Assembly: GCA_044359815.1 (NCBI GenBank)
Contig: JBIKLL010000051.1
Location: forward strand, 1 to 19,583
DNA length: 19,583 nucleotides
Source of the DNA: Pseudobdellovibrionaceae bacterium
GTDB taxonomy: Bacteria; Bdellovibrionota; Bdellovibrionia; Bdellovibrionales; Bdellovibrionaceae
Reading direction: 5' to 3'
Shown here: piece after piece, positions 1,453-14,913 of the stretch
How the letters are laid out: every line of letters starts with the position of its first letter
How positions within the stretch are numbered: position 1 is the stretch's first letter
Position numbers and translations under genes: made by a program
The notes under the pieces: model-generated
What the model was told of the DNA's origin: nothing
Databases searched by the model: none
What the model saw: only the letters and a program-made list of their open reading frames with translations

Positions 1453-1965
1453 ATGCAACCACGATTACAAACTTCAAAAAAATGGACGGCCTTTCCTAAG
1501 GAATTTGCCACTCAAGTTTTTGATATTTTTGAAACTCATTTTAAATCAAAGCTTAAAGGCGGTAAATTGATCGTCGAGGGCAGAATCTATCCAGAGGAAG
1601 TTTTGCTGCGCGTTGGCGTGCTTCAAAAAGGCAAACTGGCTCAGCAAAATTTTGAGGTTTCTGCACAGTACAGTTACAAAGATTTAGATGCCGATCAAAA
1701 AATCAATGACTGCATCGACGTCGCGGCCACCTTGATGGACGAGCTACTGTCGCTCCCCGAGGATCAGGAGATCGAATTCCCCCTGGTTTGGACCGAATTT
1801 TCTGAAAATAAATCAAAAATCTTTTTTAAATACACCACGGTCAATACCGAACTGGAAGCAGAGGCCGACAAGATTTTAGGTGTCGCTGCCACTGACGATC
1901 TGGTCAAAGAAGAACCAGACGACGACCCCAACCAACCTCCTAAAAACAAAAACAAGCTTCACTAA
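1453..1965 (+). CDS. Hypothetical protein (170 aa), acidic C-terminal tail
   Basis: Clean ATG-initiated ORF filling the gap, divergent from miaB, with AGGA upstream. No family recognised. Confidence 0.8.
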   Translation: MQPRLQTSKKWTAFPKEFATQVFDIFETHFKSKLKGGKLIVEGRIYPEEVLLRVGVLQKGKLAQQNFEVSAQYSYKDLDADQKINDCIDVAATLMDELLSLPEDQEIEFPLVWTEFSENKSKIFFKYTTVNTELEAEADKILGVAATDDLVKEEPDDDPNQPPKNKNKLH

Positions 1966-1966
1966 T

Positions 1967-2346
1967 TTCGAGATCTAGATTTTTAAAATCTTTTGTATTT
2001 TCTATTTTTGATTCTTTAATCTAAGGAATTTAATAAACTGCAAATATGAGATTTTAGAAACAAATCTTTTTACCTAAACAGGGTACAGCATCCTGCTTCA
2101 CCTGCTGTTGATCGAATAAATTTATAAAAAGACTTAATTTTGAAATTTTGTTTTAAATGGTAATTTTGCGCCGTCCTCAGAATTTAAAATTTATTCTCTC
2201 AACGGTCCCCCATGACCCGCAGAGCCCCTGTTTAGGTAAAAAGATTTGTTTCTAAAATCTCATATTTGCAATTCATTAATAGAAAATTGGCTTTTAAAGA
2301 ATCAAAAATAGAAAATACAAAAGATTTTAAAAATCTAGATCTCGAA
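1967..2346. repeat. Giant fold-back element 1: nested perfect inverted repeats (53 bp outer, 45 bp inner) enclosing a GC-rich structured core
   Basis: 1967-2019 is the exact reverse complement of 2294-2346. 2039-2083 is the exact reverse complement of 2226-2270. A third imperfect stem pairs 2107-2123 with 2187-2203. Lies between convergent genes. Confidence 0.95.
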
Positions 2347-2351
2347 GCCTG

Positions 2352-3707
2352 TTAAGCTTGGTCTTTTTCTAGGAGCTCGGCGATGCTTTTGGCATAAGTG
2401 GCAATTTGGTTTTTGTCAGGACCTTCAACAAGTATCCTGATCAGAGGCTCAGTACCAGAGTATCTGACAAAGATTCGACCTTCGGATTTAAGCTCTTGGG
2501 TGTATTTTCTTATCAGATCGTCGTATCCAGCAACGGCGCTAAGCTCTTTGCGTTTTTTTACTCGGCAATTAATCAAAATTTGCGGAACGTCTTCGATTAG
2601 GTGATTCAGTTCGCTCAGCTTTTTGCCCTCTTGAATCATAACCGCTAAAACGTTAAGAGCTGCCACACATCCATCACCTGTTGTTGTGTGATCCAAAAAT
2701 ATAATGTGACCAGATTGTTCGCCGCCCAGATTGTGTCCGTTTTGTCGCATTTCTTCCACGACGTATTTGTCACCCACATTTGTTTTAACAACTTTGATTC
2801 CATTTTCACTGAGCTTTTTTTCCAGACCAAAATTACTCATCTGGGTTACAACCAAGGTGTTGTTTTTCAGTGTGCCCTTTTTCTTCATGTGTAAAGCGCA
2901 GACTCCCAAAATGTGATCCCCGTTCATTAAATTGCCTTTTTCATCGGCCATAATCACTCGGTCTGCATCACCATCCAGACTGATTCCCACATCAGCTCTG
3001 TATTGAACTACAGCAGCGGCTAATTTTTCTGGATAAAGAGCGCCAACCTTGTCATTGATATTTGTACCATTGGGCGTGTTACCGATATGAATGACTTCTG
3101 CGCCGAGCTCTTCAAAAATTGCAGGAGCAACCTTGTAGGCAGCTCCGTTGGCTGTGTCTAATACAATTCTGATTCCATCCAGAGTGTATTCCAGCGGAAA
3201 TGTGTTTTTAGCAAACACGATGTAGCGACCTTGGGCATCGTCGATTCGCTTGCTGCGACCAATTGAATTAGATCCTGAAAGATTCAAAGACTTTGTGACT
3301 AAATCTTCGATTTGTTTTTCAACTGAATCATCAATTTTGTAGCCATCTGGACCGAATATTTTAATCCCATTGTCTTGATAGGGATTGTGACTGGCTGAAA
3401 TCACAATCCCGCAACTGGCTCTCATATTTCGGGCCAAAAAACCAATCCCTGGTGTTGGTAGTGGACCCACCAATTGCACATGCACACCCATTGAATTTAA
3501 ACCTGATGCTAGAGCTTGCTCAATCATGTAACCCGAAAGCCTGGTGTCTTTACCGATAACTACTTTTTTAGGAAGACTGGGGTTTTTGGCTCGCTGCTGA
3601 TTAAGCCAAAATCCAATGGCTTGTCCAACCTTCAACACCAAATCAGGTGTCATTGGCAGTTGGTTTGCCGTTCCTCTGATTCCGTCTGTGCCAAACAGTT
3701 TTCCCAT
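2352..3707 (-). CDS. glmM: Phosphoglucosamine mutase
   Basis: FGTDGIRG N-terminus, catalytic ISASHNP, metal loop DGDADR, GGEQSGH and RYSGTEPLIR motifs. Confidence 0.96.
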   Translation of the reverse strand: MGKLFGTDGIRGTANQLPMTPDLVLKVGQAIGFWLNQQRAKNPSLPKKVVIGKDTRLSGYMIEQALASGLNSMGVHVQLVGPLPTPGIGFLARNMRASCGIVISASHNPYQDNGIKIFGPDGYKIDDSVEKQIEDLVTKSLNLSGSNSIGRSKRIDDAQGRYIVFAKNTFPLEYTLDGIRIVLDTANGAAYKVAPAIFEELGAEVIHIGNTPNGTNINDKVGALYPEKLAAAVVQYRADVGISLDGDADRVIMADEKGNLMNGDHILGVCALHMKKKGTLKNNTLVVTQMSNFGLEKKLSENGIKVVKTNVGDKYVVEEMRQNGHNLGGEQSGHIIFLDHTTTGDGCVAALNVLAVMIQEGKKLSELNHLIEDVPQILINCRVKKRKELSAVAGYDDLIRKYTQELKSEGRIFVRYSGTEPLIRILVEGPDKNQIATYAKSIAELLEKDQA

Positions 3708-3708
3708 G

Positions 3709-4101
3709 CTATTCTTTCGTCTGCAATTCTGCGTTTATTTGATTGGGTTTTACAGAGATCACTTTCACTCCAAAGGGAACATCAATTTTTTGCAGAGGCA
3801 CATCCAAGGTTAATTTACCATCTGCCTTTTTGGTTACGTCTAATGAAACCAATTGCACAGCTCCGGATTCTAGAAATTTTTTAAGTGCCGTTCGAGGGCC
3901 AGAAAATTTAACTTTCACATGATCTGCGGACTGGCTGATGATGGTTTGATTTGGGGCTGTGACCAATTCAACCTCAAGATTTCTGGTCAAAATAAAATCT
4001 CGCCGTCCCAAAATTGTAAACCACAAAATCAGTGCAATAAATAACGCCACCAATTTGTAGCTTAAATTTTCACCTGCAATTTCAAGAAGCTTTTGTTTCA
4101 T
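3709..4101 (-). CDS. cdaR: Short YbbR/CdaR-like protein (N-terminal TM helix plus one YbbR-like beta domain)
   Basis: N-terminal ENLSYKLVALFIALILWF pattern typical of YbbR/CdaR, plus a V.V..SGPR motif. Sits between cdaA and glmM as in the conserved operon. Confidence 0.75.
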   Translation of the reverse strand: MKQKLLEIAGENLSYKLVALFIALILWFTILGRRDFILTRNLEVELVTAPNQTIISQSADHVKVKFSGPRTALKKFLESGAVQLVSLDVTKKADGKLTLDVPLQKIDVPFGVKVISVKPNQINAELQTKE

Positions 4102-4858
4102 CGTATAAAACCCTTCTTAAATCACCGCTATCATTCATTACCGACAATTGCCCACCGTGAACCAATCCAACGGATTTGTTTTCCTCGCTGACAATAATAA
4201 CAATGGAATCTGTTTCTTCTGTTAAACCAATAGCAGCTCGGTGTCTGGTTCCTAAGTTTTTATCTAACACTGGGCTTTTACTGAGCGGCAAAAAATTGCC
4301 TGCAGAATGGATTTTTCCACCTCTTACCAGTACGGCTCCATCATGGATGGGGCTGCTGGGTAAAAATATAGATAACAGCATTTCAGAACTGAGCTTGGCA
4401 TCCACTTCGGTCCCAAACTCAATGTGATAATCAACCAGGATGTCCCTTTCGATAACTATCAGCGCACCCATGCCCTTTTGAGCCATGGCAAAAGCGGCCT
4501 TACAGATTTCTTCGATCACATAGGCCTCTTGCACACCAGAAACGTCCGAGAAAAAGGGATTGCTACCGATCTGAGCCAACGCCCGCCTGATCTCTGCCTG
4601 AAACAGCACAACCACAATGACAAACAAATTTGAAAAGAATTTTTCTAATATCCAGTTAAAGGTAAACAGCTCAAGCCAGATACTCAGAATGTAGGCAACG
4701 GCCAGAACTCCCAATCCAGACAGCATTTGAATGGTTCCGGTTTTTCTGATTAAAACTAGAATTCGATAAACAACTAACCAAACCAGCAGCACATCCAGTA
4801 AATCCTGAAAGCGCAAGTGAGTTAAAATAAAAACTATGTTGTCCATCGCCTGTTGCAT
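4082..4858 (-). CDS. cdaA: Membrane-bound diadenylate cyclase (c-di-AMP synthase) CdaA/DacA
   Basis: Three N-terminal hydrophobic helices, FQAEIRRAL, GALIVIER, and the DAC catalytic motifs HDGA and GTRHRAA. Confidence 0.93.
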   Translation of the reverse strand: MQQAMDNIVFILTHLRFQDLLDVLLVWLVVYRILVLIRKTGTIQMLSGLGVLAVAYILSIWLELFTFNWILEKFFSNLFVIVVVLFQAEIRRALAQIGSNPFFSDVSGVQEAYVIEEICKAAFAMAQKGMGALIVIERDILVDYHIEFGTEVDAKLSSEMLLSIFLPSSPIHDGAVLVRGGKIHSAGNFLPLSKSPVLDKNLGTRHRAAIGLTEETDSIVIIVSEENKSVGLVHGGQLSVMNDSGDLRRVLYDETKAS

Positions 4859-4868
4859 TTTATTTTTA

Positions 4869-6821
4869 CTAAGCTGTTACTGGTCCTGGATTTCCGACGG
4901 GGTCTGTTGAAGATTTCTTAACCTCTGAAACTTCAGCCTGAGTTCCCCCTGAACTCCCGTTATTATTTTTATTGCTTCTAACCTTTGCGATTTCAGAAAC
5001 AGCGGCTCCATTCACCAGCATTTCAACTTCCACGCCGTCAATGGTTTCGTATTCCAGCAATGCCACCGCCAGTCTTTCCAAAGCGTCTCTGTTATCAACT
5101 AAAATATTTTTTGCTACTTTAAAGCCTTCCTCAACAATTTTAAAAACTTCAGCATCAATTTCTTCGGCCTTTGAATCCGAATATTCTTTAGTGGTGCTGC
5201 CATAATTCAGTCCTAAAAACACAGGGCCTTCGCGTTTTTCATAGGACAGGGGGCCCAGCTTTTCGCTCATTCCCCATTCGCAAACCATCCGACGAGCAAT
5301 CTCGGTAGCCCGCTCGATGTCATTGCCAGCACCTGTTGTGATATCGCCAAACACGATTTCCTCGGCAGCTCTGCCACCAAACAAAAATGAAATCATGTTT
5401 TTAGCTTTAGTCTTAGATAAATTTAAACTGTCTTTTTCAGGAAGAGTCTGAGTTACCCCCAAAGCCATTCCCCTGGGAATAATTGTGACTTTGTGAATAG
5501 GATCAATGCCCACTAATTTTTTACCTACCAGTGTGTGACCTGCTTCGTGATAAGCTGTGACTCTTTTGTCTTCATCTGAAATCACCATGGACTTGCGTTC
5601 ACTGCCCATAAGAACCTTGTCTTTTGCTCGTTCAAAATCGTCCATAGTTAAATATTTTTTATCTGTGCGGGCGGCAATAAGTGCAGCTTCGTTGGCCAGA
5701 TTTTCTAAATCAGCTCCAGAAAACCCTGGAGTCCCTCTGGCGATTTTTTCTAAGTCCACATCAGGTCCCAGCGGAGTCTTTTTAGTGTGCACATCCAAAA
5801 TTTGCTTTCGGCCATTCACATCAGGTTTATTAACAACAACCCTTCTGTCAAATCTGCCTGGTCTTAATAAAGCCGGATCCAACACATCAGGACGGTTAGT
5901 CGCTGCAATTAAAATAACTCCGTCATTGCTCTCAAAGCCATCCATTTCAACCAGCAACTGATTAAGAGTTTGCTCCCTCTCATCATGCCCGCCGCCCATG
6001 CCAGCCCCTCTGTGCCTTCCGACAGCGTCGATCTCGTCGATAAAAATCAAGCACGGAGCTTGTTTTTTACCCTGTTCAAACAAATCTCTGACACGGCTTG
6101 CGCCTACGCCCACGAACATTTCAACGAAATCTGAACCTGAAATAGAAAAAAACGGAACTCCCGCTTCACCAGCAACAGCTCTGGCCAATAATGTTTTACC
6201 TGTTCCCGGAGGACCCACTAACAAAACACCTTTGGGGATTCGCCCACCCAGCTTGGTAAATTTTTTGGGATCTTTTAAAAACTGCACAATCTCTTGCAGT
6301 TCTTCTTTGGCCTCATCGACGCCGGCAACTTCTTTGAAGGTCACACGGTTTTTGGTTTCGTTTAAAAGTTTTGCTTTTGATTTTCCAAAGGACATGGCTT
6401 TACCACCACCGACTTGGATCTGTCGCAGCAATAACATAAACATTCCCACGACTAAAATCACAGGCAGCCAATTAAAAAATAGCGCTTGCATAAACGAGTT
6501 GGAATCGCCCTTTTCGTAATTAGGAGTGATCCCATTGGCGACCAGAAATTTAAAACCCTCATCAGTCGTGTTCCCAGGAATGACAAAGTTTTTACCAGCG
6601 TATTTGCGTTCATAGTCAGCTTTGATTTCGCCAACAATTTCTTCGGTGTCAGTTCTGAAAGTCACTGAAGCGATTTCTTTATTTTTTACTGCTTCAGAAA
6701 ATTTAGCATAGTTAAAATCTTGAATCATAGTTTGGCTTTTATTCTGCCAAGCTTGAATTACAAACACGGCAATCACTACCAGAAAAAGCCAAAGGGCTAA
6801 GGTTTTTTGAGCTGACTTCAT
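4869..6821 (-). CDS. ftsH: ATP-dependent zinc metalloprotease FtsH
   Basis: Two TM segments, Walker A GPPGTGKT, pore FVG, Walker B IFIDEID, second region of homology and HEAGH zinc motif. GGAGG RBS upstream. Confidence 0.98.
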
Positions 6822-6835
6822 AGGCCTCCAAACGG

Positions 6836-6859
6836 TCAGAGAAAGTTTTCACTTTCTGA
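6836..6859 (-). promoter_or_regulatory. Small hairpin with GAAA tetraloop in the ftsH leader
   Basis: Minus strand reads AGAAAGT-GAAA-ACTTTCT (6857-6840), immediately 5' of the ftsH RBS. Confidence 0.35.
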
Positions 6860-6920
6860 TTAAGAATAGCTTATCACAATTCTCAGCGATGCCACAACAA
6901 AGCTCAGTGATTGCAAAAAT

Positions 6921-7916
6921 TTAGGTCCTATGTTTTGGATCTATTTGGACAAGGATAAGCCCTGCGTTAATTGACCAGATCATGGGACCCAGTACGAAGT
7001 TGTGCAGTTTTTTTGGATTGTCCAGTCGCTTTTGGATTTCTTTGACCTGCCCTAGCGAAAAATTCTTATAACCAGCATTAAAAATCATCTGACCAAGGAC
7101 TGTTTTCTGCTGCGAATCCGACAGAAGCCAGTAATTTTGCACAGTCATTGGGCTGATCTGGGAAAAATCTTGTTCCGACGACTGACAGATTAATTCCAAT
7201 GATCTGGCAAGACTTTCTGTGGATCCAGGACGGACCATTTGCAACTGTGGCAACCAAAAATTTCTGATCCAATTGCGCAAAAAATGATTTTGTTGATTTG
7301 AGGGATCCTGCATCCATTTTAATTCGCATTTTTTTGCATAGGACAGCAAAGATTTCTTTGAAAACTCTAGAGCAGGCCTTAGCTTCCAGTCATTAATAGG
7401 TTTTAGTGATCTGAGCCCCTTTAGACCCGATCCCCGAATCAGCTGAATCAATCTGGTTTCCAGCAGATCATCTTGGTGATGTGCGGTAGATACAAAGTCA
7501 AACTTCAAGCGTTCTTTAAGCTTTAATAGCTCTTGGTAACGAAAGATTCTTAACTGGTTTTCAGCTATCAGCGACTGCTCACTGGGTCCCAGCGCATAAA
7601 ATTGCAAATTATAGGATTTTGCCAACTCTTTGCAAAAACTCTGAGCCTGATTTCGGTATTCAATATCACCGCCATGATGAACATAGGCAACAACTAGATT
7701 CTGCCTTTGAGTTCTGGCGATGGCTTTAAAAAACAAATCAACAAGCACCACAGAATCCACTCCGCCAGACACCGCTATGATGATTTTTTTATCCAATACA
7801 TTGAGATGCCTTAGTTGCTGACTAAACCGATGATTCAGATTAACCCAAGTTGATTTTTTAAATGGTTTGTCTGTTTGATTTGTACTCGTATTTTCAGACA
7901 CAGCTTTGTTTTGCAT
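6921..7916 (-). CDS. tilS: tRNA(Ile)-lysidine synthetase TilS (short form; start uncertain)
   Basis: PP-loop AVSGGVDS, TAHHQDDLLET, RGSG, DPSN and RNWIR motifs. Upstream of ftsH, as in the common tilS-ftsH synteny. Confidence 0.92.
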   Translation of the reverse strand: MQNKAVSENTSTNQTDKPFKKSTWVNLNHRFSQQLRHLNVLDKKIIIAVSGGVDSVVLVDLFFKAIARTQRQNLVVAYVHHGGDIEYRNQAQSFCKELAKSYNLQFYALGPSEQSLIAENQLRIFRYQELLKLKERLKFDFVSTAHHQDDLLETRLIQLIRGSGLKGLRSLKPINDWKLRPALEFSKKSLLSYAKKCELKWMQDPSNQQNHFLRNWIRNFWLPQLQMVRPGSTESLARSLELICQSSEQDFSQISPMTVQNYWLLSDSQQKTVLGQMIFNAGYKNFSLGQVKEIQKRLDNPKKLHNFVLGPMIWSINAGLILVQIDPKHRT

Positions 7917-8053
7917 GGGGCTTTAATTAGCACGAATTCAATTGAAATCAACTCTGGTAACCTTTGAGGGTTTGAGTTTTTTAAATAGAGTGAATTTTAC
8001 TGTACAAAATCCTGACACTGGCGGTTTGATTTACCCCCTGTACAATAACCAAT

Positions 8054-8692
8054 ATGGGCTTTTTAAATCTGCTTTTACACAATGGTTTTGTCAAAATCCC
8101 CAGGTCTATGTCCCTTAAGGTTTTTCTGGGGACTGCATGTGCCAGTGTTTTAATGGTATTTTCGCTGGTCACTAATGCCAGCACCAATCCCATTCAGTCA
8201 AAAGTCAAAGAACTGATTAGCTTTTACCAGGATAGCAAATCATTAAAGGCCGAGGAATCCAGATTGATACAAGATTTTTTATACAGACTCAGTTTTAAAA
8301 TTCATACCTTGGGTGCCACCACTGATGAGCGCAAAGTTTTATTAAATGCTTTAGATCAGATTTTACTGGATTCAAATCTGGAGACTCATCCAAAGATTCT
8401 GACCTTCGCTGAGAATCTGTCACAGGCATTGAAAGACCATTTGGAGCCCAAGGAAGACGCCTTTGCCTTTATCAAAAACTTTATTTCCTTTAGTGGCATC
8501 GATGACCCAAAAGACGTGAATGAGTTTTTTGAAAAACAAGATTATGTGAACAAAAAAAGCTTTATCACGGCCCAGAACCCGATGTTTGAGGAAGCCGGTC
8601 AGTTTGCTATTTTAAAAACTGAACCTCAGGTGGACCTATCCAAGATCAATTTACTGTTTGATTTTAAATTTCAATCAAACCCAACAAATTGA
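8054..8692 (+). CDS. Hypothetical protein, probably exported (alternative start ATG 8108 gives a signal peptide)
   Basis: Long ORF filling the gap. MSLKVFLGTACASVLMVFSLVTNA resembles a Sec signal peptide. Its 3' end overlaps the convergent ALDH gene by 22 nt. Confidence 0.7.
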   Translation: MGFLNLLLHNGFVKIPRSMSLKVFLGTACASVLMVFSLVTNASTNPIQSKVKELISFYQDSKSLKAEESRLIQDFLYRLSFKIHTLGATTDERKVLLNALDQILLDSNLETHPKILTFAENLSQALKDHLEPKEDAFAFIKNFISFSGIDDPKDVNEFFEKQDYVNKKSFITAQNPMFEEAGQFAILKTEPQVDLSKINLLFDFKFQSNPTN

Positions 8693-10032
8693 TGATTTAT
8701 AAACTCATAAAACCCAGGCTTTCCTAGCTCCTTGCCGTAACCTGATCCCCTGACCCCGCCAAAGGGAACTCTGATGTCAGACTTTATCATGGCATTCACT
8801 GCCACCATACCCACTTGCAGCCCTGTGGCGATTTCGTTCGCAAGATTAAGGTTTTTCGCAAACAAAGCAGCGCCCAGTCCGTATTCGGAATCATTGATGG
8901 CTTTTACCACCTGATCTGAGTCTGTAAATTCAGCCACCATTCCTACGGGTCCAAAATATTCTTGGTTTTTAAAATGGGGATGATCGACATTGGTTTCAAC
9001 AATCTGAATGGGATGGTAACTGGTTTCAGAAAATTCAGGTGGCAGTTTTTCTGAAAATACCAATTTCCCGCCAGTGCTTAAATGCTCAGAGACTTGTTTT
9101 TTTAATTGCACAACAAAGCGCTGATGCGCCAATGCCCCTCTATCAGTGCTGGGATTTTGAGCCAGACCTAGTTTTAGCTTCTGCAATTCTGTAAAAAACA
9201 AATCTAAAAATTCAGCTTTGATTGAGCTTTCTATCAGAAATCTTTTGGCAGATATGCAGGCTTGTCCATTATTAACCATTTTCGCCATGGCACAAATCTG
9301 TGCTGATTTTTCAAGATCGGCATCTTTAAAAATCACGTAGCAATCATTACCGCCAAGCTCTAGGACTGACTTTTTTAAATACTTACCAGCCAATGAAGCA
9401 ATGACCGACCCCCCAGACTGACTGCCCGTAAAGGTCACAGCACGAATGGTTTTATTTTTAACAACCATTTCTATTTTGGAATGGGGAATTCTCAGATTTT
9501 CCGCCACTGGCACCGTTGAGTTTAAAATACTGACTATTTTTTCTGCGCTGCCAGCTGTGATATCTGAATGTTTAATGATCAAACTATTCCCGTTTAGCAC
9601 GCTGACCACAGCTACTCTGATCACCTGCCAAAGCGGGTAATTCCAAGGCATCACCGCCAGTATCACTCCTAGGGGCTGTTTGATCAAAACTGTCTGTTTA
9701 TAATGCGCCCCTGGAGTTTCAGAATTCATCATACCAGTAAAATTTTGAGACGCGTATTGCAGTGAAAATATCGATTTATCTATTTCTGCCAATGAATCTT
9801 TGATGGGCTTTCCCATTTCGACTGAAATCAAAGTGGCCAAAACACTTCTGTCTGTTTGCAAAGCTGCTGCAATGGATTGCAGAATTTTTATTCTGCCAGT
9901 TTCATCAATGGATTTTAATTGTTCAAAATTCTGTTGAGCTTTTAGAATGATTTCGTAAATCTCCGAGTCGGTATGATAATTATAACTACTCAGTGTTTTT
10001 AAATTTTCAGGGTTGACTGTGTTAAATTCCAC
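8671..10032 (-). CDS. NAD(P)-dependent aldehyde dehydrogenase, succinate-semialdehyde dehydrogenase (Sad/GabD1)-like
   Basis: EMGKP, PWNYP, FTGS, catalytic ELGG and NGQAC, EYFGPV and PFGG motifs. Start placed at GTG 10032 (VEFNTVNP) by analogy with family N-termini; the ORF is open to 10068. Confidence 0.9.
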   Translation of the reverse strand: MEFNTVNPENLKTLSSYNYHTDSEIYEIILKAQQNFEQLKSIDETGRIKILQSIAAALQTDRSVLATLISVEMGKPIKDSLAEIDKSIFSLQYASQNFTGMMNSETPGAHYKQTVLIKQPLGVILAVMPWNYPLWQVIRVAVVSVLNGNSLIIKHSDITAGSAEKIVSILNSTVPVAENLRIPHSKIEMVVKNKTIRAVTFTGSQSGGSVIASLAGKYLKKSVLELGGNDCYVIFKDADLEKSAQICAMAKMVNNGQACISAKRFLIESSIKAEFLDLFFTELQKLKLGLAQNPSTDRGALAHQRFVVQLKKQVSEHLSTGGKLVFSEKLPPEFSETSYHPIQIVETNVDHPHFKNQEYFGPVGMVAEFTDSDQVVKAINDSEYGLGAALFAKNLNLANEIATGLQVGMVAVNAMIKSDIRVPFGGVRGSGYGKELGKPGFYEFINHQFVGFD

Positions 10033-10255
10033 TCCACACAAATAACTCGACAAAAGAAGATATGACAATAGCGAAAGATGTCAGACTCAATATTAAATAG
10101 GCTGACGCTTTATAAACCCGTTCCAATTTTAAAGCTGATTTTTTATAAGGACTGCTGAAGGCAAAAACAGGATTTGCTATGCAGGCTCTAAAAAACTGAT
10201 TACAGCTAAAAACGAAAAACACTGTTGATAGGAGACTGACAATATAAAGCATCAT
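10022..10255 (-). CDS. Small membrane protein (77 aa, two hydrophobic helices)
   Basis: ATG start, two hydrophobic stretches flanking a basic loop, fills the gap and overlaps the ALDH start. Confidence 0.5.
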   Translation of the reverse strand: MMLYIVSLLSTVFFVFSCNQFFRACIANPVFAFSSPYKKSALKLERVYKASAYLILSLTSFAIVISSFVELFVWSGI

Positions 10256-10262
10256 GATACAG

Positions 10263-10290
10263 AGCCCATCGGCTTGATACCAATGGGTCT
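10263..10290 (-). terminator. Hairpin downstream of the 233-aa ORF (possible weak terminator)
   Basis: Minus strand CCCATTGG-N7-CCGATGGG stem with one G-U pair, about 20 nt after the stop codon. No strong U tract. Confidence 0.3.
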
Positions 10291-10306
10291 AAATACGACA
10301 ATGGTC

Positions 10307-11008
10307 TTAAAATTCTTCTTCTTCACTGATTGAAGATTCAGAGGTCATACCCCTTACTTCATCAATAAAGCTTTGAGTCTCGTCTTCAAATTCATTGTCC
10401 AGAGCTGCTTCATCAATTTCAAGCTCTTGAATAGCTGCCAAGAAATCTTTTTCGTTTCTCAGATCTTTCCTGATCATTTCTAAGAACTTATCTGGATAAC
10501 GTGATGTGAGTTCTTCAACATAACGCTCAAGCTTACCATCAGCCAAAATTTTACGTCTGACCTGGATTTTCTTCCAAAGAGCCAGGTAATGAAATCTGCA
10601 GTAACCTTCAACCACACCTATTTGATCGCAATCCCTGACCCGGCAATACCTGCGACCTTCAGCGTCGGTCAGAATCACTTCCTCAGGACCGCTTTCTTTA
10701 GCCACAACGGATTCAGACTCCAGAACTTCAATGGAGGCGTCCTCGGTGACCTCTACAGTTTCATCAAACTCAGACAGATCAGGAATTTCCTCGGCACCAA
10801 AATCTTCATCAGATTCTAAAATAACTTCATCCGAAGCGGGCTTTTCTTTGCTTTTTTTGCCGCCTTTAACCTTGGAAGGTATGGGGCTTTGCTTCTTTTT
10901 TGCTGCAGCGCTTAACTCTGATTTTGCCGAGTCTTTTTGCTGCTTTGCTGCATTTTTATTATCTGATTTATTACTGACTGTCTTCTTAGGTGTTTTTGTT
11001 TTTGCCAT
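10307..11008 (-). CDS. Hypothetical protein: Lys-rich then acidic disordered N-terminus, C-x4-C-x9-C-x2-H putative Zn site, helical acidic C-terminus
   Basis: Sequence composition and the motif YCRVRDCDQIGVVEGYCRFHY. Confidence 0.85.
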   Translation of the reverse strand: MAKTKTPKKTVSNKSDNKNAAKQQKDSAKSELSAAAKKKQSPIPSKVKGGKKSKEKPASDEVILESDEDFGAEEIPDLSEFDETVEVTEDASIEVLESESVVAKESGPEEVILTDAEGRRYCRVRDCDQIGVVEGYCRFHYLALWKKIQVRRKILADGKLERYVEELTSRYPDKFLEMIRKDLRNEKDFLAAIQELEIDEAALDNEFEDETQSFIDEVRGMTSESSISEEEEF

Positions 11009-11044
11009 AGAGATTGGATGAACGATTCAGACAAACAAGTCAAA

Positions 11045-12010
11045 TTATTTTACAACAATTGTGCCTTCCGAAGACCTTGCAACAACTTGTCCCTTCACTC
11101 CACCGCCACGGGCGTGACCCTTATAAACTTTGTTTGAGCCATCACGATAGGCTTTTAAGTTGCCGGGCAAATACAATTCGCCGTCCTCGGTGGACAGACT
11201 TAAATAAGCAGAGCTGTCTTTAGGCAAAACCACTGTAAGTCGGCCTTTTTGAGAGCGGACATTTATATCAGCTTCCTCTGAAGGATTCAGGGATACTGAT
11301 CCATCTAGAATTTGACCTTCCATTCGGCCTTTAAAGGAATTCGTTGATAAAATCCCCTTCTTAACATCAAATTTTAAAGTCCCCGATGAATCTTTGATGT
11401 TTGATTTTCCCTTGGTCGTAGAAACCTGCATTGATCCCTGAGATTTTTCAATGCTAGTGTCACCTACAAAATTAGAAACAATCAGCTCACCTGTTTGCTT
11501 GGTGATTTTAACCATGGCTGCAAAAGAATCGGCCTCAATACTGCCGACATTTTCATCAGCCACTAATTCACCATTAAGCAAAATCACTTTTGCTGTGGAC
11601 TTCAGGGCCTTTAAATTTACCTTAGCCTTTGTGGCTTCAATTAAAATTGGATGTTTCCAATTTTTAACATTGATTGAGCCTTCCTTCAGGTGAACTTCAA
11701 GGGTCAAACTGGGAATTTCAAATTCTAAACTGACAGGCTTTGAAAAATACCGATCACTGACGATAATAGCAGTGTCCTTAATTGAAACCTGCACAGAATC
11801 TGAAGTTCCCTCCAAAATCCGCCATTTTAATTCTTTGGAAGCCGAGGGGATAAAGTTTATTTTGGCATTTTGCAAATTCACGAACATAGTTTCTTGCCCT
11901 GTCAAAATCTTTTGAGCCAATGCTGCAGAAGGCAGCAACGACAGCAATAAGCTCAACACTAGACAAATCGCAGCAACAGAAAAAGCTAAAAAATATTTTT
12001 GAAAACTCAT
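11045..12010 (-). CDS. Secreted DUF4097/adhesin-like beta-strand repeat protein
   Basis: Signal peptide ending ALA-Q, followed by repeated beta-strand units with G-x-(I/L/V) turns (NGELV, VGSIE, TGELI, QGSMQ, SGTLK) and a terminal SSEGTIVVK. Confidence 0.75.
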   Translation of the reverse strand: MSFQKYFLAFSVAAICLVLSLLLSLLPSAALAQKILTGQETMFVNLQNAKINFIPSASKELKWRILEGTSDSVQVSIKDTAIIVSDRYFSKPVSLEFEIPSLTLEVHLKEGSINVKNWKHPILIEATKAKVNLKALKSTAKVILLNGELVADENVGSIEADSFAAMVKITKQTGELIVSNFVGDTSIEKSQGSMQVSTTKGKSNIKDSSGTLKFDVKKGILSTNSFKGRMEGQILDGSVSLNPSEEADINVRSQKGRLTVVLPKDSSAYLSLSTEDGELYLPGNLKAYRDGSNKVYKGHARGGGVKGQVVARSSEGTIVVK

Positions 12011-12016
12011 ACATTG

Positions 12017-12045
12017 ACTCTGCTTTTAATCTGACTTTCTGTCAA
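12017..12045 (-). promoter_or_regulatory. Putative sigma70 promoter for the DUF4097-like gene (possibly leaderless)
   Basis: Minus strand TTGACA (12045-12040), 17-nt spacer, weak -10 CAGAGT (12022-12017), then 6 nt to the ATG with no SD. Confidence 0.3.
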
Positions 12046-12068
12046 AGAACTTTTATCGAAAGGATTTT

Positions 12069-13244
12069 ATGAACCATGCAGTAATTATCGCAGCCAGCCG
12101 CACGCCTGTCGGCAGTTTTCAAGGCAGTCTTTCTGGATTAGCCGCTCCAAAATTGGGAGCGATTGCAATCAAGGAATCTTTAAAAAGGGCTCAGCTAAAA
12201 GCCGAAGAAATTGACGAAGTTATTATGGGTGAAGTTTTAACCGCAGGTGTGGGACAAGCCCCCGCCAGACAATCTGCATTGTATGCAGGTATTGCAAATT
12301 CAGTTCGTTGCATGACAATTAATAAAGTTTGCGGAAGCGGCCTTAAGGCCGTGATGTTGGCGGCTGACTCTGTAAATCTGGGACACAGCCAATTTGTAAT
12401 TGCTGGTGGTCAAGAAAATATGTCTCTTGCGCCTCACCTGATGGAAAACTCCAGAGTTGGCTACCGCATGGGTCCACAAACAATTTCTGACAGCATGGTA
12501 AAAGACGGCTTGTGGGATCCTTACAATAATTTTCACATGGGAAATGCTGCTGAACTTTGTGTGCGCGAATATAAATTTACACGCGAAGAACAAGACGCCT
12601 TTGCGATCGACTCCTATAAAAAAGCCCAAAATGCCATTCAGAGCGGTGCTTTTAAAAATGAAATTGCAGCTGTGGAAATTCAAGACCGAAAGGGCACAAT
12701 TAGAATCGAAAACGATGAAGAACCCGGTAACGCTAAATTTGATAAAATCCCAGGACTACGACCCGCTTTTGAAAAAGAAGGAACTATCACTGCAGCCAAT
12801 GCCTCAAAAATAAATGACGGAGCTGCTGCGCTAGTCGTCACAACAGAAGCTTTGGCAAAACAAAGGGGATCAAAAGTTTTAGCGAAAATTAAAGCTCAGG
12901 CAACATTTGCTCAAGATCCAAAATGGTTCACAACAGCTCCTGTGGGTGCCATGAAAGAAGCTTTAAAAAAAGCAAATCTAACTGTTGATCAAATTGATTT
13001 ATGGGAAATTAATGAGGCGTTTGCCAATGTCACTATGGCAGCAATTAGAGATCTAAAAATTGATCCAGCACGTGTAAACATCAATGGTGGAGCTGTTGCC
13101 ATAGGTCATCCAATTGGCGCCAGTGGAGCCAGAATTTTAACGACGCTTTTGTATGCTCTGGAAGCTAAAAATAAAAAATACGGAATGGCTTCACTCTGCA
13201 TAGGTGGCGGAGAAGCTGTTGCTGTTATTGTGGAAAGACCCTAA
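12069..13244 (+). CDS. atoB: Acetyl-CoA C-acetyltransferase (thiolase)
   Basis: NKVCGSG catalytic Cys, NEAF, GHPIGASG and CIGGG motifs. AAGGA RBS. Confidence 0.93.
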   Translation: MNHAVIIAASRTPVGSFQGSLSGLAAPKLGAIAIKESLKRAQLKAEEIDEVIMGEVLTAGVGQAPARQSALYAGIANSVRCMTINKVCGSGLKAVMLAADSVNLGHSQFVIAGGQENMSLAPHLMENSRVGYRMGPQTISDSMVKDGLWDPYNNFHMGNAAELCVREYKFTREEQDAFAIDSYKKAQNAIQSGAFKNEIAAVEIQDRKGTIRIENDEEPGNAKFDKIPGLRPAFEKEGTITAANASKINDGAAALVVTTEALAKQRGSKVLAKIKAQATFAQDPKWFTTAPVGAMKEALKKANLTVDQIDLWEINEAFANVTMAAIRDLKIDPARVNINGGAVAIGHPIGASGARILTTLLYALEAKNKKYGMASLCIGGGEAVAVIVERP

Positions 13245-13262
13245 AGATCAGAAAAGAGTTTT

Positions 13263-13955
13263 ATGAAAAAAGTATTTTCAAACGCTACAGAGGCCCTATT
13301 TGATATCAAAGATAACGTAACAATTGTCTTGGGTGGGTTTGGACTTTGTGGAATTCCAGAAAATTTGATCCAGGCTTTGAAAGAATCTAAGGCCAAGGGA
13401 TTAACCTGCGTTTCAAACAATGCAGGTGTTGACGACTGGGGACTGGGCTTACTGTTGCAAACCCGACAAATCAAAAAAATGATTTCAAGCTATGTGGGTG
13501 AAAATGCTTTATTTGAAAAACAATACTTAAACAAAGAACTGGAAGTGGAATTTTGTCCCCAGGGAACTTTGGCCGAAAGAATCCGAGCTGGTGGAGCCGG
13601 CATCGCTGGTTTTTACACTCCTACAGGAGTCGGCACCAAGGTCGCCGAAGGTAAAGATATTAGAAAGTTTGATGGGAAAGAGTTTGTTTTAGAAACAGGC
13701 ATCAAAGGCGAATTTGCATTTGTGAAAGCTTGGAAGGGCGATAAGTTTGGAAATTTAATTTATCGAAAGACCAGCAGAAATTTTAATCCCATGGCGGCCA
13801 CTGCCGGGAAAGTCACGATTGCCGAAGTTGAAGAGCTGGTCGAAATCGGCCAGTTGGATCCGGATCAGATCCATACACCTGGTGTTTATGTGCAAAGAAT
13901 TTTTCAAGGAACTAATTATCAAAAGCGCATCGAACAAAGAACGGTGAGGAAATAA
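13263..13955 (+). CDS. scoA: Succinyl-CoA:3-ketoacid CoA transferase subunit A
   Basis: [31 protein letters not shown] and IHTPGVYV motifs. Confidence 0.93.
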
Positions 13956-14620
13956 TGCCACTAAATCGAGATCAAATTGCAGCCCGTATTGCAAAAGAGG
14001 TTGAAGACGGATTTACCGTTAATCTGGGTATTGGTATTCCAACCTTGGTAGCTAATCATATTCCCGCCGATAAGTTTGTCATGTTTCAAAGTGAAAATGG
14101 TTTGTTAGGAATGGGAGCTTTCCCATCTGAGTCTGAGGTCGATGCTGATTTAATCAATGCCGGAAAACAAACTGTTACCTGTGTAGCCGGCGCCAGTTTT
14201 TTTTCCAGTGCAGACAGTTTTGCAATGATTCGTGGTGGCCATGTGGATTTAACAGTTTTGGGGGCCATGGAAGTGGATGAATTGGGCAGCATCGCAAACT
14301 GGATGGTTCCCGGAAAAATGGTTAAGGGCATGGGTGGCGCCATGGATTTAGTTGCTGGAGCCAAGCGCGTGATAGTGGCCATGCAACACACTGATAAGGA
14401 AGGTAATTCAAAGCTACGAACTAAATGTCTACTGCCTCTGACTGGGGTTCAATGCGTGCACAAAATTGTTTCTGACTTGGGAGTCTTTGATGTAACCAAA
14501 GAGGGATTTGTCCTACTTGAGCATGCTCACGACGTAAGTATAGACCACATCAAGCAGCACACCGAAGGCAGACTCACCATCAGCAAAAACGTAAAACCCC
14601 TAACCCTGCACGGGGCATAG
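13955..14620 (+). CDS. scoB: Succinyl-CoA:3-ketoacid CoA transferase subunit B
   Basis: NLGIGIPT, catalytic SENG and GMGGAMDL motifs. TAATG stop/start overlap with scoA. Confidence 0.93.
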   Translation: MPLNRDQIAARIAKEVEDGFTVNLGIGIPTLVANHIPADKFVMFQSENGLLGMGAFPSESEVDADLINAGKQTVTCVAGASFFSSADSFAMIRGGHVDLTVLGAMEVDELGSIANWMVPGKMVKGMGGAMDLVAGAKRVIVAMQHTDKEGNSKLRTKCLLPLTGVQCVHKIVSDLGVFDVTKEGFVLLEHAHDVSIDHIKQHTEGRLTISKNVKPLTLHGA

Positions 14621-14913
14621 ATCTGAATAACTAGCTGGACCTACGTCTGCGCAATGGCTTTGCTAAAAACTTAAAGATCAATGAAGACAATTTAAAAGCA
14701 TTTAATTTTAATTTAATGAGACCTCCGCGGAGCCTGGACGGCGGGGGCTTGGCCCGAGCGGAGAAGCAGGAGCTGCGTCTCATTAAATTAAAATTAAATG
14801 CTTTTAAATTGTCTTCATTGAACTCGTGTTTACTAGCATCTATTTTGCCTTAGGTCCTTAGTCTAAGGAAGATTCATTCAGACCTACGCCCCGTGCAGGG
14901 AATCAGGGGTTTT
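14593..14913. repeat. Giant fold-back element 2: perfect 45-bp inner inverted repeat plus imperfect outer stems enclosing a 54-nt GC-rich core
   Basis: 14678-14722 is the exact reverse complement of 14777-14821. 14604-14628 pairs with 14876-14900 (23/25). 14593-14601 pairs with 14905-14913. GGACCTA 14637-14643 pairs with TAGGTCC 14851-14857. Confidence 0.95.

Follow-up and report, generated by a model that had tools for sequence, protein, structure and literature searches.

The stretch of DNA analyzed here (the window) comprises 19,583 nucleotides of a Pseudobdellovibrionaceae bacterium (assembly GCA_044359815.1, contig JBIKLL010000051.1) and encodes a miaB-like gene, glmM, cdaA, ftsH, a tilS-like gene, and genes for a thiolase, a CoA-transferase and pyruvate kinase. 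Two giant palindromes lie among these genes, element 1 read on the minus strand and element 2 on the plus strand, each with a long stem capped by a structured tip. An earlier note, made from the letters of the window, had proposed that the two share a covarying core and belong to a new family of dispersed structured elements. That reading is partly supported: the palindromes are members of a real dispersed structured family, but one that appears to be a diverged branch of a known orphan class, the RNA motif TwoAYGGAY (Rfam RF01731). An Rfam scan of the window at the gathering score returned no matches. The two elements are organized as follows, in window coordinates.

1945-2368, minus strand: element 1, the whole hairpin (424 nt), from inverted repeats and folding
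1945-2019: element 1 outer left arm (75 nt), pairing with 2294-2368 at 89% complementarity
2030-2083: element 1 inner left arm (54 nt), pairing with 2226-2279 at 96%
2084-2225, minus strand: element 1 tip (142 nt), from sequence and folding
2087-2097, minus strand: hairpin AGCA-GGA-TGCT
Inside 2100-2106, minus strand: 3' strand of the junction helix
2107-2203, minus strand: 97-nt AT-rich hairpin, replacing the short second hairpin
2204-2217, minus strand: first hairpin GGTC-ATGGGG-GACC, its loop without GGA
2219-2224, minus strand: 5' strand of the junction helix, CTCTGC
2226-2279: element 1 inner right arm, pairing with 2030-2083
2294-2368: element 1 outer right arm, pairing with 1945-2019
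14604-14900, plus strand: element 2, the whole nested hairpin (297 nt), from inverted repeats and folding
14604-14628 and 14876-14900: element 2 outer arms
14675-14722: element 2 left arm (48 nt), pairing with 14777-14824 at 98%
14723-14776, plus strand: element 2 tip (54 nt), a type A core and a row of the family alignment
14723-14728 with 14758-14763, plus strand: junction helix, CTCCGC with GCGGAG
14729-14731, plus strand: GGA
14732-14742, plus strand: hairpin 1, GCC-TGGAC-GGC
14745-14755, plus strand: hairpin 2, GGGC-TTG-GCCC
14765-14774, plus strand: hairpin 3, AGC-AGGA-GCT
14777-14824: element 2 right arm, pairing with 14675-14722

An inverted-repeat search bears out the two palindromes and their tips with a shared core, and most of the structural detail first drawn for them holds. 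The 9-mer GAAGCAGGA is present in both tips, and folding of element 1 gives the proposed topology of a CUCUGC/GCAG helix, GGUC-AUGGGG-GACC, the 97-nt hairpin and AGCA-GGA-UGCU. The minus strand of 1930-2385 forms a single continuous hairpin of -212 kcal/mol in the minimum-free-energy fold. The arms of the two elements are dissimilar, with no blastn match between them. Each core abuts a perfect stem of 45 bp, as had been noted (2039-2083/2226-2270 in element 1 and 14678-14722/14777-14821 in element 2); this exact equality is a coincidence, with perfect runs ranging from 1 to 74 bp (median 39) in 57 copies of the family, and element 2 the only one of these to have 45.

The family is dispersed throughout the genome (2.95 Mb in 125 contigs). 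Searches with the element 2 tip identify about 60 copies by blastn and 63 with an nhmmer profile, and a covariance model (R1) built from 44 aligned tips of types A and B, each flanked on both sides by 12 nt of its stem, has 63 matches at E up to 1 (the lowest score being 17.9 bits, E 0.65); the element 2 tip scores 96.2 bits (E 1.4e-25). Ungapped flanking stems scoring at least 20 are present in 57 of the 63, and whole hairpins span 127-277 nt, with a median of 185 (56 copies). The basal stems are near-perfect and AT-rich, and extend over 40-150 bp (typically 40-80), and the tips are GC-rich. In the tip consensus, a junction helix CUCYGC/GCRGAG surrounds, in order, GGA, hairpin 1 (loop NGGAN), GGG, the short hairpin 2 and (C)GA, and a second GGA-loop hairpin (hairpin 3) stands beyond the helix. 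Three subtypes are distinguished.

Type A: CUCUGC...GCAGAG-A-AGC-AGGA-GCU
Type B: hairpin 3 of 4 bp, and a U bulging from the junction helix
Type C: about 25 other nucleotides in place of the second GGA hairpin

Hairpin 1 is also absent from four of the ten aligned type C copies, and the long stems are kept in all of them; the 3' half of the type C consensus fold is not convincing. A hammerhead-like reading of the type C insert was rejected, having no Rfam support either in the window at the gathering score or, at E up to 10, at L010, the single type C locus scanned. Among the 44 aligned type A and B tips, the hairpin 1 loop contains GGA in 41 (the exact AUGGAU in seven), and the hairpin 3 loop contains GGA in 32 and CGA in 11. 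The HIP1 octamer is not enriched in the genome (24 copies), and on this ground the idea that the DNA is cyanobacterial was rejected.

The family exists, and its fold is maintained by compensatory change, as the earlier note had supposed for the core. When the 44-sequence alignment is scored against a structure that we specified (28 pairs, 1224 cells), 97.7% of cells are paired, compared with 86.2% in shuffled alignments and 35-49% when partners are slid. Both sides have changed in 17 of the 28 pairs, and none of 500 shuffles reaches the observed values on any measure. For example, pair 19-55 in the junction helix divides evenly between C-G and U-A (22 rows each), pair 61-71 has A-U in 34 rows and G-C in nine, and pairs 40-49 and 41-48 change from G-C to A-U in three rows and one row, respectively.

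Element 1 is an unusual member. R1, which was built from 44 other copies, misses it with filters off and E up to 1. It carries CTCTGCGG at its 5' junction, as in the family, its 3' junction has a 17-nt exact match to the family copy at C124:47393-47409 (blastn, E 0.019), and clustering of the genome's palindrome tips places it together with the family. Because R1 fails to detect it, its homology rests on the shared topology, CTCTGCGG and the 17-nt match; with these and its tip cluster, we count element 1 as a probable sixty-fourth copy, diverged or aberrant.

The same tip plan occurs in 10 of 40 relatives (9 of 24 from the same family and 1 of 16 from the same order), on stems of unrelated sequence, and an even sampling of the phylum adds matches in 8 of 150 further genomes. 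The 40 relatives have 0-12 copies (1-12 in the bearers) compared with 63 here, an amplification in this lineage. PMC3627812 (main text and supplements) was searched for the coordinates of one relative's matches, in case a small RNA had been reported there, and gave only unrelated numeric matches. Three complete genomes of the genus g9 keep a divergent doublet together with a singleton, with doublet spacers of 327 nt (G135), 295 nt (G161) and 241 nt (G171).

G135:C1:1313300-1314700: g9 doublet L224
G161:C1:2597800-2599200: g9 doublet L225
G171:C1:1191400-1192700: g9 doublet L226

Each element of these doublets has a basal stem of 35-40 bp, and the doublets look like a conserved pair of small-RNA genes, not a recent insertion. 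The genome described here has one divergent doublet, on C52.

The first hairpin extends much further. A scan across phyla with its 20-nt pattern, using one genome per species, yielded at least 113 stretches, and 80 loci (83 occurrences) were examined. The hairpin is nearly invariant, GCGGAGCC-N(1-2)-GGA-N-GGCGGGRGC, in at least 59 structured loci of other phyla, and by minimum free energy 59 of the 83 occurrences adopt the same plan, with at least 15 enclosing pairs, GCC-loop-GGC, and then a second hairpin; the loops of this second hairpin are mostly of the GGA type or CGA. Some matches are chance occurrences in GC-rich coding DNA, as in Streptomyces. Among the matches listed, most records are labelled Vulcanimicrobiota/Eremiobacteraeota, and others Chromatiales, Eisenbacteria, Binatia, Acidoferrum, Pirellulales, Alphaproteobacteria, Deltaproteobacteria and Oligoflexia. 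The hairpin GCGGAGCC-AYGGAY-GGCGGGAGC, which occurs on long stems in MAGs with such labels, might represent a branch of this superfamily that is large, uncatalogued and spread across phyla and that binds one conserved partner.

The tip is reminiscent of TwoAYGGAY. This motif was first listed by Weinberg et al. 2010 (PMC2864571), the available part of which gives human gut, Gammaproteobacteria and Clostridiales as its sources; the available part of Gardner and Eldai 2015 (PMC4333381) describes two tandem G-A pairs and proposes the loops as CsrA sites. A recent preprint (bioRxiv 10.64898/2026.09.22.753630), in the part available, reports the motif in Pseudomonadota and Bacillota, in many copies with strong copy-number variation, in a pattern resembling that of a mobile element, varying widely in structure, and forming divergent doublets about 250 bp apart. 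The same part describes an elongated basal stem in Bacillota members, arrays of 5-6-nt repeats 5' of the Pseudomonas RNAs, and REP arrays downstream of the motif in Pseudomonas fluorescens SBW25. The family described here is similarly multi-copy and variable in copy number, and has divergent doublets. No upstream arrays of 5-6-nt repeats are detected by TRF at the copies in this genome. We note that one copy in a relative, L068 (G017:C27:1-1716, about 29-110), is immediately preceded by tandem (GCTTTT)n repeats that resemble the Pseudomonas arrays.

At E up to 10, sub-threshold matches to RF01731 are present in 12 of 30 loci (1 of 10 and 11 of 20 in two sets); all are full length (model positions 1-168) and on the sense strand of the element, at 24.4-38.1 bits. 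The other permissive Rfam matches are generic plant and animal microRNA-precursor hairpins on both strands, leaving TwoAYGGAY as the sole recurring bacterial family. The two-hairpin plan of the motif is recognizable in the family, with the junction helix and hairpin 1 as one arm, hairpin 3 next to it and the long stem closing both, and two copies in relatives that lack hairpin 2 (L067 and L070) have the plain two-hairpin form. Forms from other phyla have a GGA/GGGA internal loop beside hairpin 1, and the family in this genome has GGA...GGG...(C)GA there, either of which might correspond to the tandem G-A pairs of the motif. Because the topology, GGA loops, copy behavior and doublets fit the class, we file the tip as a putative diverged variant of TwoAYGGAY that lies outside the numerical criterion of Rfam, and not as a categorically new element. 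With this plan and recurrent sense-strand matches, all below threshold, the novelty claimed for the family in the earlier note is not supported. A literature search on palindromic intergenic hairpin repeats in Bdellovibrio gave nothing relevant by title or abstract, and supplementary figures S25-S29 of the preprint, which concern taxonomic range and stem variants, could already cover this lineage.

On balance we favor, with reasonable though far from complete confidence, the interpretation that both palindromes are copies of a long-hairpin repeat family with a diverged TwoAYGGAY-class tip, which spreads and folds as RNA. The element would spread by duplication or transposition, by an unspecified route, into gaps on the terminator side of genes, where it would be transcribed within read-through 3' ends or 3' untranslated regions and fold as RNA. 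The tip would then present its GGA loops to a protein, for which CsrA is the obvious candidate, and the long stem could provide a rigid handle, or a place where the RNA is processed or stabilized.

The arms diverge from copy to copy yet remain paired inside each copy. Mean ungapped identity between copies over the inner 40 nt of the arms is 54%, compared with 35% by chance, and within copies 3101 of 3179 stem positions (97.5%) are Watson-Crick paired. The first description of a conserved core mounted on interchangeable arms stands insofar as the arms do differ between copies; it does not hold in that most arms in the genome are mutually homologous (67-87% over 40-70 nt per side), and the same arm consensus also bears an unrelated tip present in 60 copies, so that modularity runs both ways. 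Stem mismatches, read on the strand of the GGA loops, comprise 34 G-T and 15 A-C (binomial p 0.009, symmetric scoring), with G-T predominating in 21 copies and the reverse in nine. This excess therefore says that the GGA-loop strand is the strand selected to fold as a single strand, with RNA and single-stranded DNA equally compatible.

A mismatch bias that fits single-stranded DNA equally well is one of several observations favoring an alternative that we regard as unlikely, namely a DNA-level mobile element, like a REPIN or MITE, in which single-stranded DNA folds into the hairpin, or a cruciform is extruded, and the tip is recognized by a transposase, for example of the HUH/Y1 type. The disparity in copy number with the relatives is in keeping with it, as is the lack of orientation bias relative to flanking genes (described below). 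So too is the wider palindrome content of the genome: there are 154 long palindromes, almost none with a simple loop and nearly all with structured tips, and the tips group into at least five families (60, 58, 16, 5 and 3 copies) and 12 singletons, the TwoAYGGAY-like family being that with 58. The two largest families share an arm consensus, with 84 cross-family arm matches compared with one in a shuffled control. A separate, tentative reading is that the long AT-rich palindrome is a shared chassis with interchangeable structured GC-rich tips, which would make it a modular element of an undescribed kind. The 60-copy tip begins TTGCTAACGGCCGCAAGC and is unrelated to the TwoAYGGAY-like tip. Nine representatives of the non-TwoAYGGAY tips have no meaningful Rfam match.

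C5:4160-4500: other-tip palindrome L215
C50:8780-9300: other-tip palindrome L216
C52:42700-43200: other-tip palindrome L217
C49:99050-99400: other-tip palindrome L218
C68:3690-4010: other-tip palindrome L219
C80:8910-9250: other-tip palindrome L220
C10:880-1250: other-tip palindrome L221
C26:9660-9990: other-tip palindrome L222
C27:13360-13700: other-tip palindrome L223

Candidate transposases of a suitable type are also encoded in the genome. There are eight paralogous Y1_Tnp-like genes (weak matches to PF01797), mostly of 206 aa (206-227 as called) and with 85-93% protein identity, and one further, more distant gene.

C23:201-821: Y1_Tnp-like gene
C48:48177-48797: Y1_Tnp-like gene
C56:2969-3616: Y1_Tnp-like gene
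C47:11964-12584: Y1_Tnp-like gene
C49:93331-93951: Y1_Tnp-like gene
C100:633-1253: Y1_Tnp-like gene
C125:2378-2998: Y1_Tnp-like gene
C8:23373-24056: Y1_Tnp-like gene

The earlier note had correctly reported that the window encodes no mobilizing enzyme and had suggested looking for a RAYT/HUH nuclease gene flanked by such copies; Y1/HUH-like genes are present, but the hairpins neither flank them nor co-occur with them. No hairpins of this kind were found in the flanks of the eight genes, among which conservation is confined to the ORF and some 60 nt before it. The protein family was not detected in three relatives that carry the element, G008 and G019 (complete, single-contig genomes) and G025, yet is present in 16 of 30 relatives without the element. 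The lack of target duplications or defined ends also argues against a DNA-level mobile element, and the low-copy doublets kept in three g9 species resemble retained genes, not junk. We note that several of the Y1-like genes adjoin short tandem arrays, such as (CTAACTAT)n and (GATTCCC)n, and that genomes across the order have multiple copies of the protein family, one relative having as many as 17 matches.

The sequencing runs listed with matching contigs are all DNA runs (24, mostly lake-water metagenomes), with no RNA run among them. The contigs of four of these runs include no allele lacking either element, but contigs break or fold back within the palindromes (the pieces of X2 stop at 1996 and start again at 2317, and 1967/2347 is an opposite-strand joint in X3), making them uninformative on insertion polymorphism. 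Downstream of glmM in 15 relatives a co-oriented gene follows directly; the synteny differs, and there is no clean empty site.

The copies are positioned immediately 3' of stop codons; most occupy convergent gaps, and divergent (promoter) gaps are almost free of them. Placement was scored for 57 of the 63 copies, the other six being at contig edges, and relies on our own crude ORF calls (2580 genes, 86.5% coding). Convergent gaps account for 34 of the copies, tandem gaps for 22 and divergent gaps for one, against expectations of about 10-13, 30-38 and 9-16 (chi-square p 1.5e-11 or smaller), the convergent gaps as counted including the elements themselves. In the tandem gaps, the upstream stop codon is the nearer in 15 of 22, and element and genes point the same way in 11 copies and opposite ways in the other 11. 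The stems often reach or enter stop codons; in copies 21 and 46, the gene ends are 70 nt on either side of the tips, and the stems are 72 and 74 bp long. Element 2 begins within the final 17 nt of the CoA-transferase B gene (13955-14620) and is separated from the next gene (14943) by 43 nt. Element 1 lies between the convergent ORF 1453-1965 and glmM (2352-3707), and overlaps their final 21 and 17 nt, respectively; glmM takes its stop codon and the four codons before it from the outer right arm. GlmM ends in ...LEKDQA* here and in ...LEKELS* in the relatives whose glmM 3' ends were compared. We note that the last three GlmM residues depart from those of the relatives exactly at the start of the element 1 arm, and that the outer arms of element 1 form the ends of both convergent genes (2352-2368 and 1945-1965), so that one gene end is the reverse complement of the other.

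A second alternative, in which the long hairpins, kept between convergent genes, stop transcription or RNA decay from both directions and the tip is secondary, draws on this placement and on the stems that run up to or into both stop codons (element 1 and copies 21 and 46). We consider it improbable, the two scanned regions containing no intrinsic-terminator-like site (a T run after a GC-rich stem). It leaves the conservation of the tip across genera and of the first hairpin across phyla unexplained, and the placement could simply mirror where insertions are tolerated. Slightly less probable again is a truly new structured family whose resemblance to TwoAYGGAY is convergence on GGA-loop hairpins: it can draw on the lack of an Rfam match at the gathering score, on the absence of hairpin 2 and the GGA/GGGA internal loop from the RF01731 consensus as aligned, and on the first hairpin in other phyla (RF01731 detecting none of the five structured loci scanned), against which stand the same topology with AYGGAY-like loops at both hairpins, the multiple copies and divergent doublets, the sense-strand matches in 12 of 30 loci, and the great structural variability described for TwoAYGGAY in the available part of bioRxiv 10.64898/2026.09.22.753630.

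Several results weigh against the interpretation that we favor, a mobile RNA-folding repeat of the TwoAYGGAY class. With regard to the class, no copy scanned reaches the RF01731 gathering threshold of 43 bits (the best score 38.1, 34.5 and 34.0), the alignments show that the score owes much to a generic long stem and the CAUGGAUG loop, and the five cross-phylum look-alikes scanned have no RF01731 match even at E up to 10. With regard to mobility, neither target duplications nor conserved termini were seen at the hairpin ends, and even the most similar copies from different loci agree at only about 87%, giving no sign of recent jumps. With regard to an RNA of one orientation, the even split of orientations in tandem gene pairs counts against it, as do consensus scans of two regions that found no promoter-like and no terminator-like sites; the crude ORF calls and the counting of the elements within the convergent gaps limit what the placement can contribute.

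The proposed role of CsrA has further difficulties. The genome has one csrA gene (PF02599, 90.5 bits), and Rfam assigns TwoAYGGAY to clan CL00106, which we take to be the Csr/Rsm clan. CsrA binding of the GGA-loop tips is possible but weakly supported as judged from their sequences: CGA replaces GGA in a quarter of the aligned hairpin 3 loops, type C copies without the second GGA hairpin persist with their stems intact, and the first loop of element 1 is AUGGGG. Because copies with CGA loops, type C copies and copies lacking hairpin 1 persist with intact stems, the putative binding cannot be needed for keeping every copy.

Elsewhere in the window, the region at 3709-4858 has cdaA (with a DAC domain), followed by an ORF of 130 aa without a Pfam match, and then glmM. 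The order cdaA-cdaR-glmM is usual, but the middle gene is unusually short. No tRNA was found in the window.

TwoAYGGAY is a widespread and abundant orphan bacterial RNA motif that appears mobile. This genome provides a natural experiment, with about 64 copies in which the stems have been rewritten by paired changes and the tip is fixed, and with natural variants that lack one or both of the GGA hairpins. The family enables direct tests of CsrA binding, of action as RNA or as single-stranded DNA, and of how a conserved tip is carried on changing, perfect stems. Because the Rfam model misses whole lineages of the class, the true range of the motif is probably much wider than that catalogued.

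REP, BIME and REPIN elements are short non-coding palindromes that recur outside genes, number in the tens and are concentrated at the 3' ends of genes. The family shares these properties, being palindromic, extragenic, present in tens of copies and located at gene 3' ends in a genome with Y1/HUH-type genes. In REPINs the stem is conserved and the loop varies, whereas here the tip is conserved and the stem is variable, and, unlike REPINs and RAYTs, the family has no positional or co-occurrence link to the Y1-like genes.

The decoy RNAs of the Csr/Rsm system (CsrB, RsmY and RsmZ) likewise have GGA motifs in hairpin loops, and csrA is present in this genome. The family differs from them in having only two or three GGA motifs per unit, scattered across 63 loci instead of being gathered in a single abundant RNA, and in the second loop without GGA in 11 of the 44 aligned copies.

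The closest comparison is with TwoAYGGAY itself. The family differs from the motif in its extra short hairpin between GGG and (C)GAGC, in basal stems that are far longer and near-perfect, in the many degenerate loops (UGGAC, AGGA and ACGA, with AUGGGG as the first loop of element 1), and in a lineage other than the taxa named for the motif in the sources. It shares with the motif a basal stem around two successive hairpins whose terminal loops mostly carry (A)YGGAY or GGA, copies that number in the tens per genome and differ greatly in number between relatives, and divergent doublets a few hundred nucleotides apart; a GA-rich irregularity in one stem is a possible further likeness.

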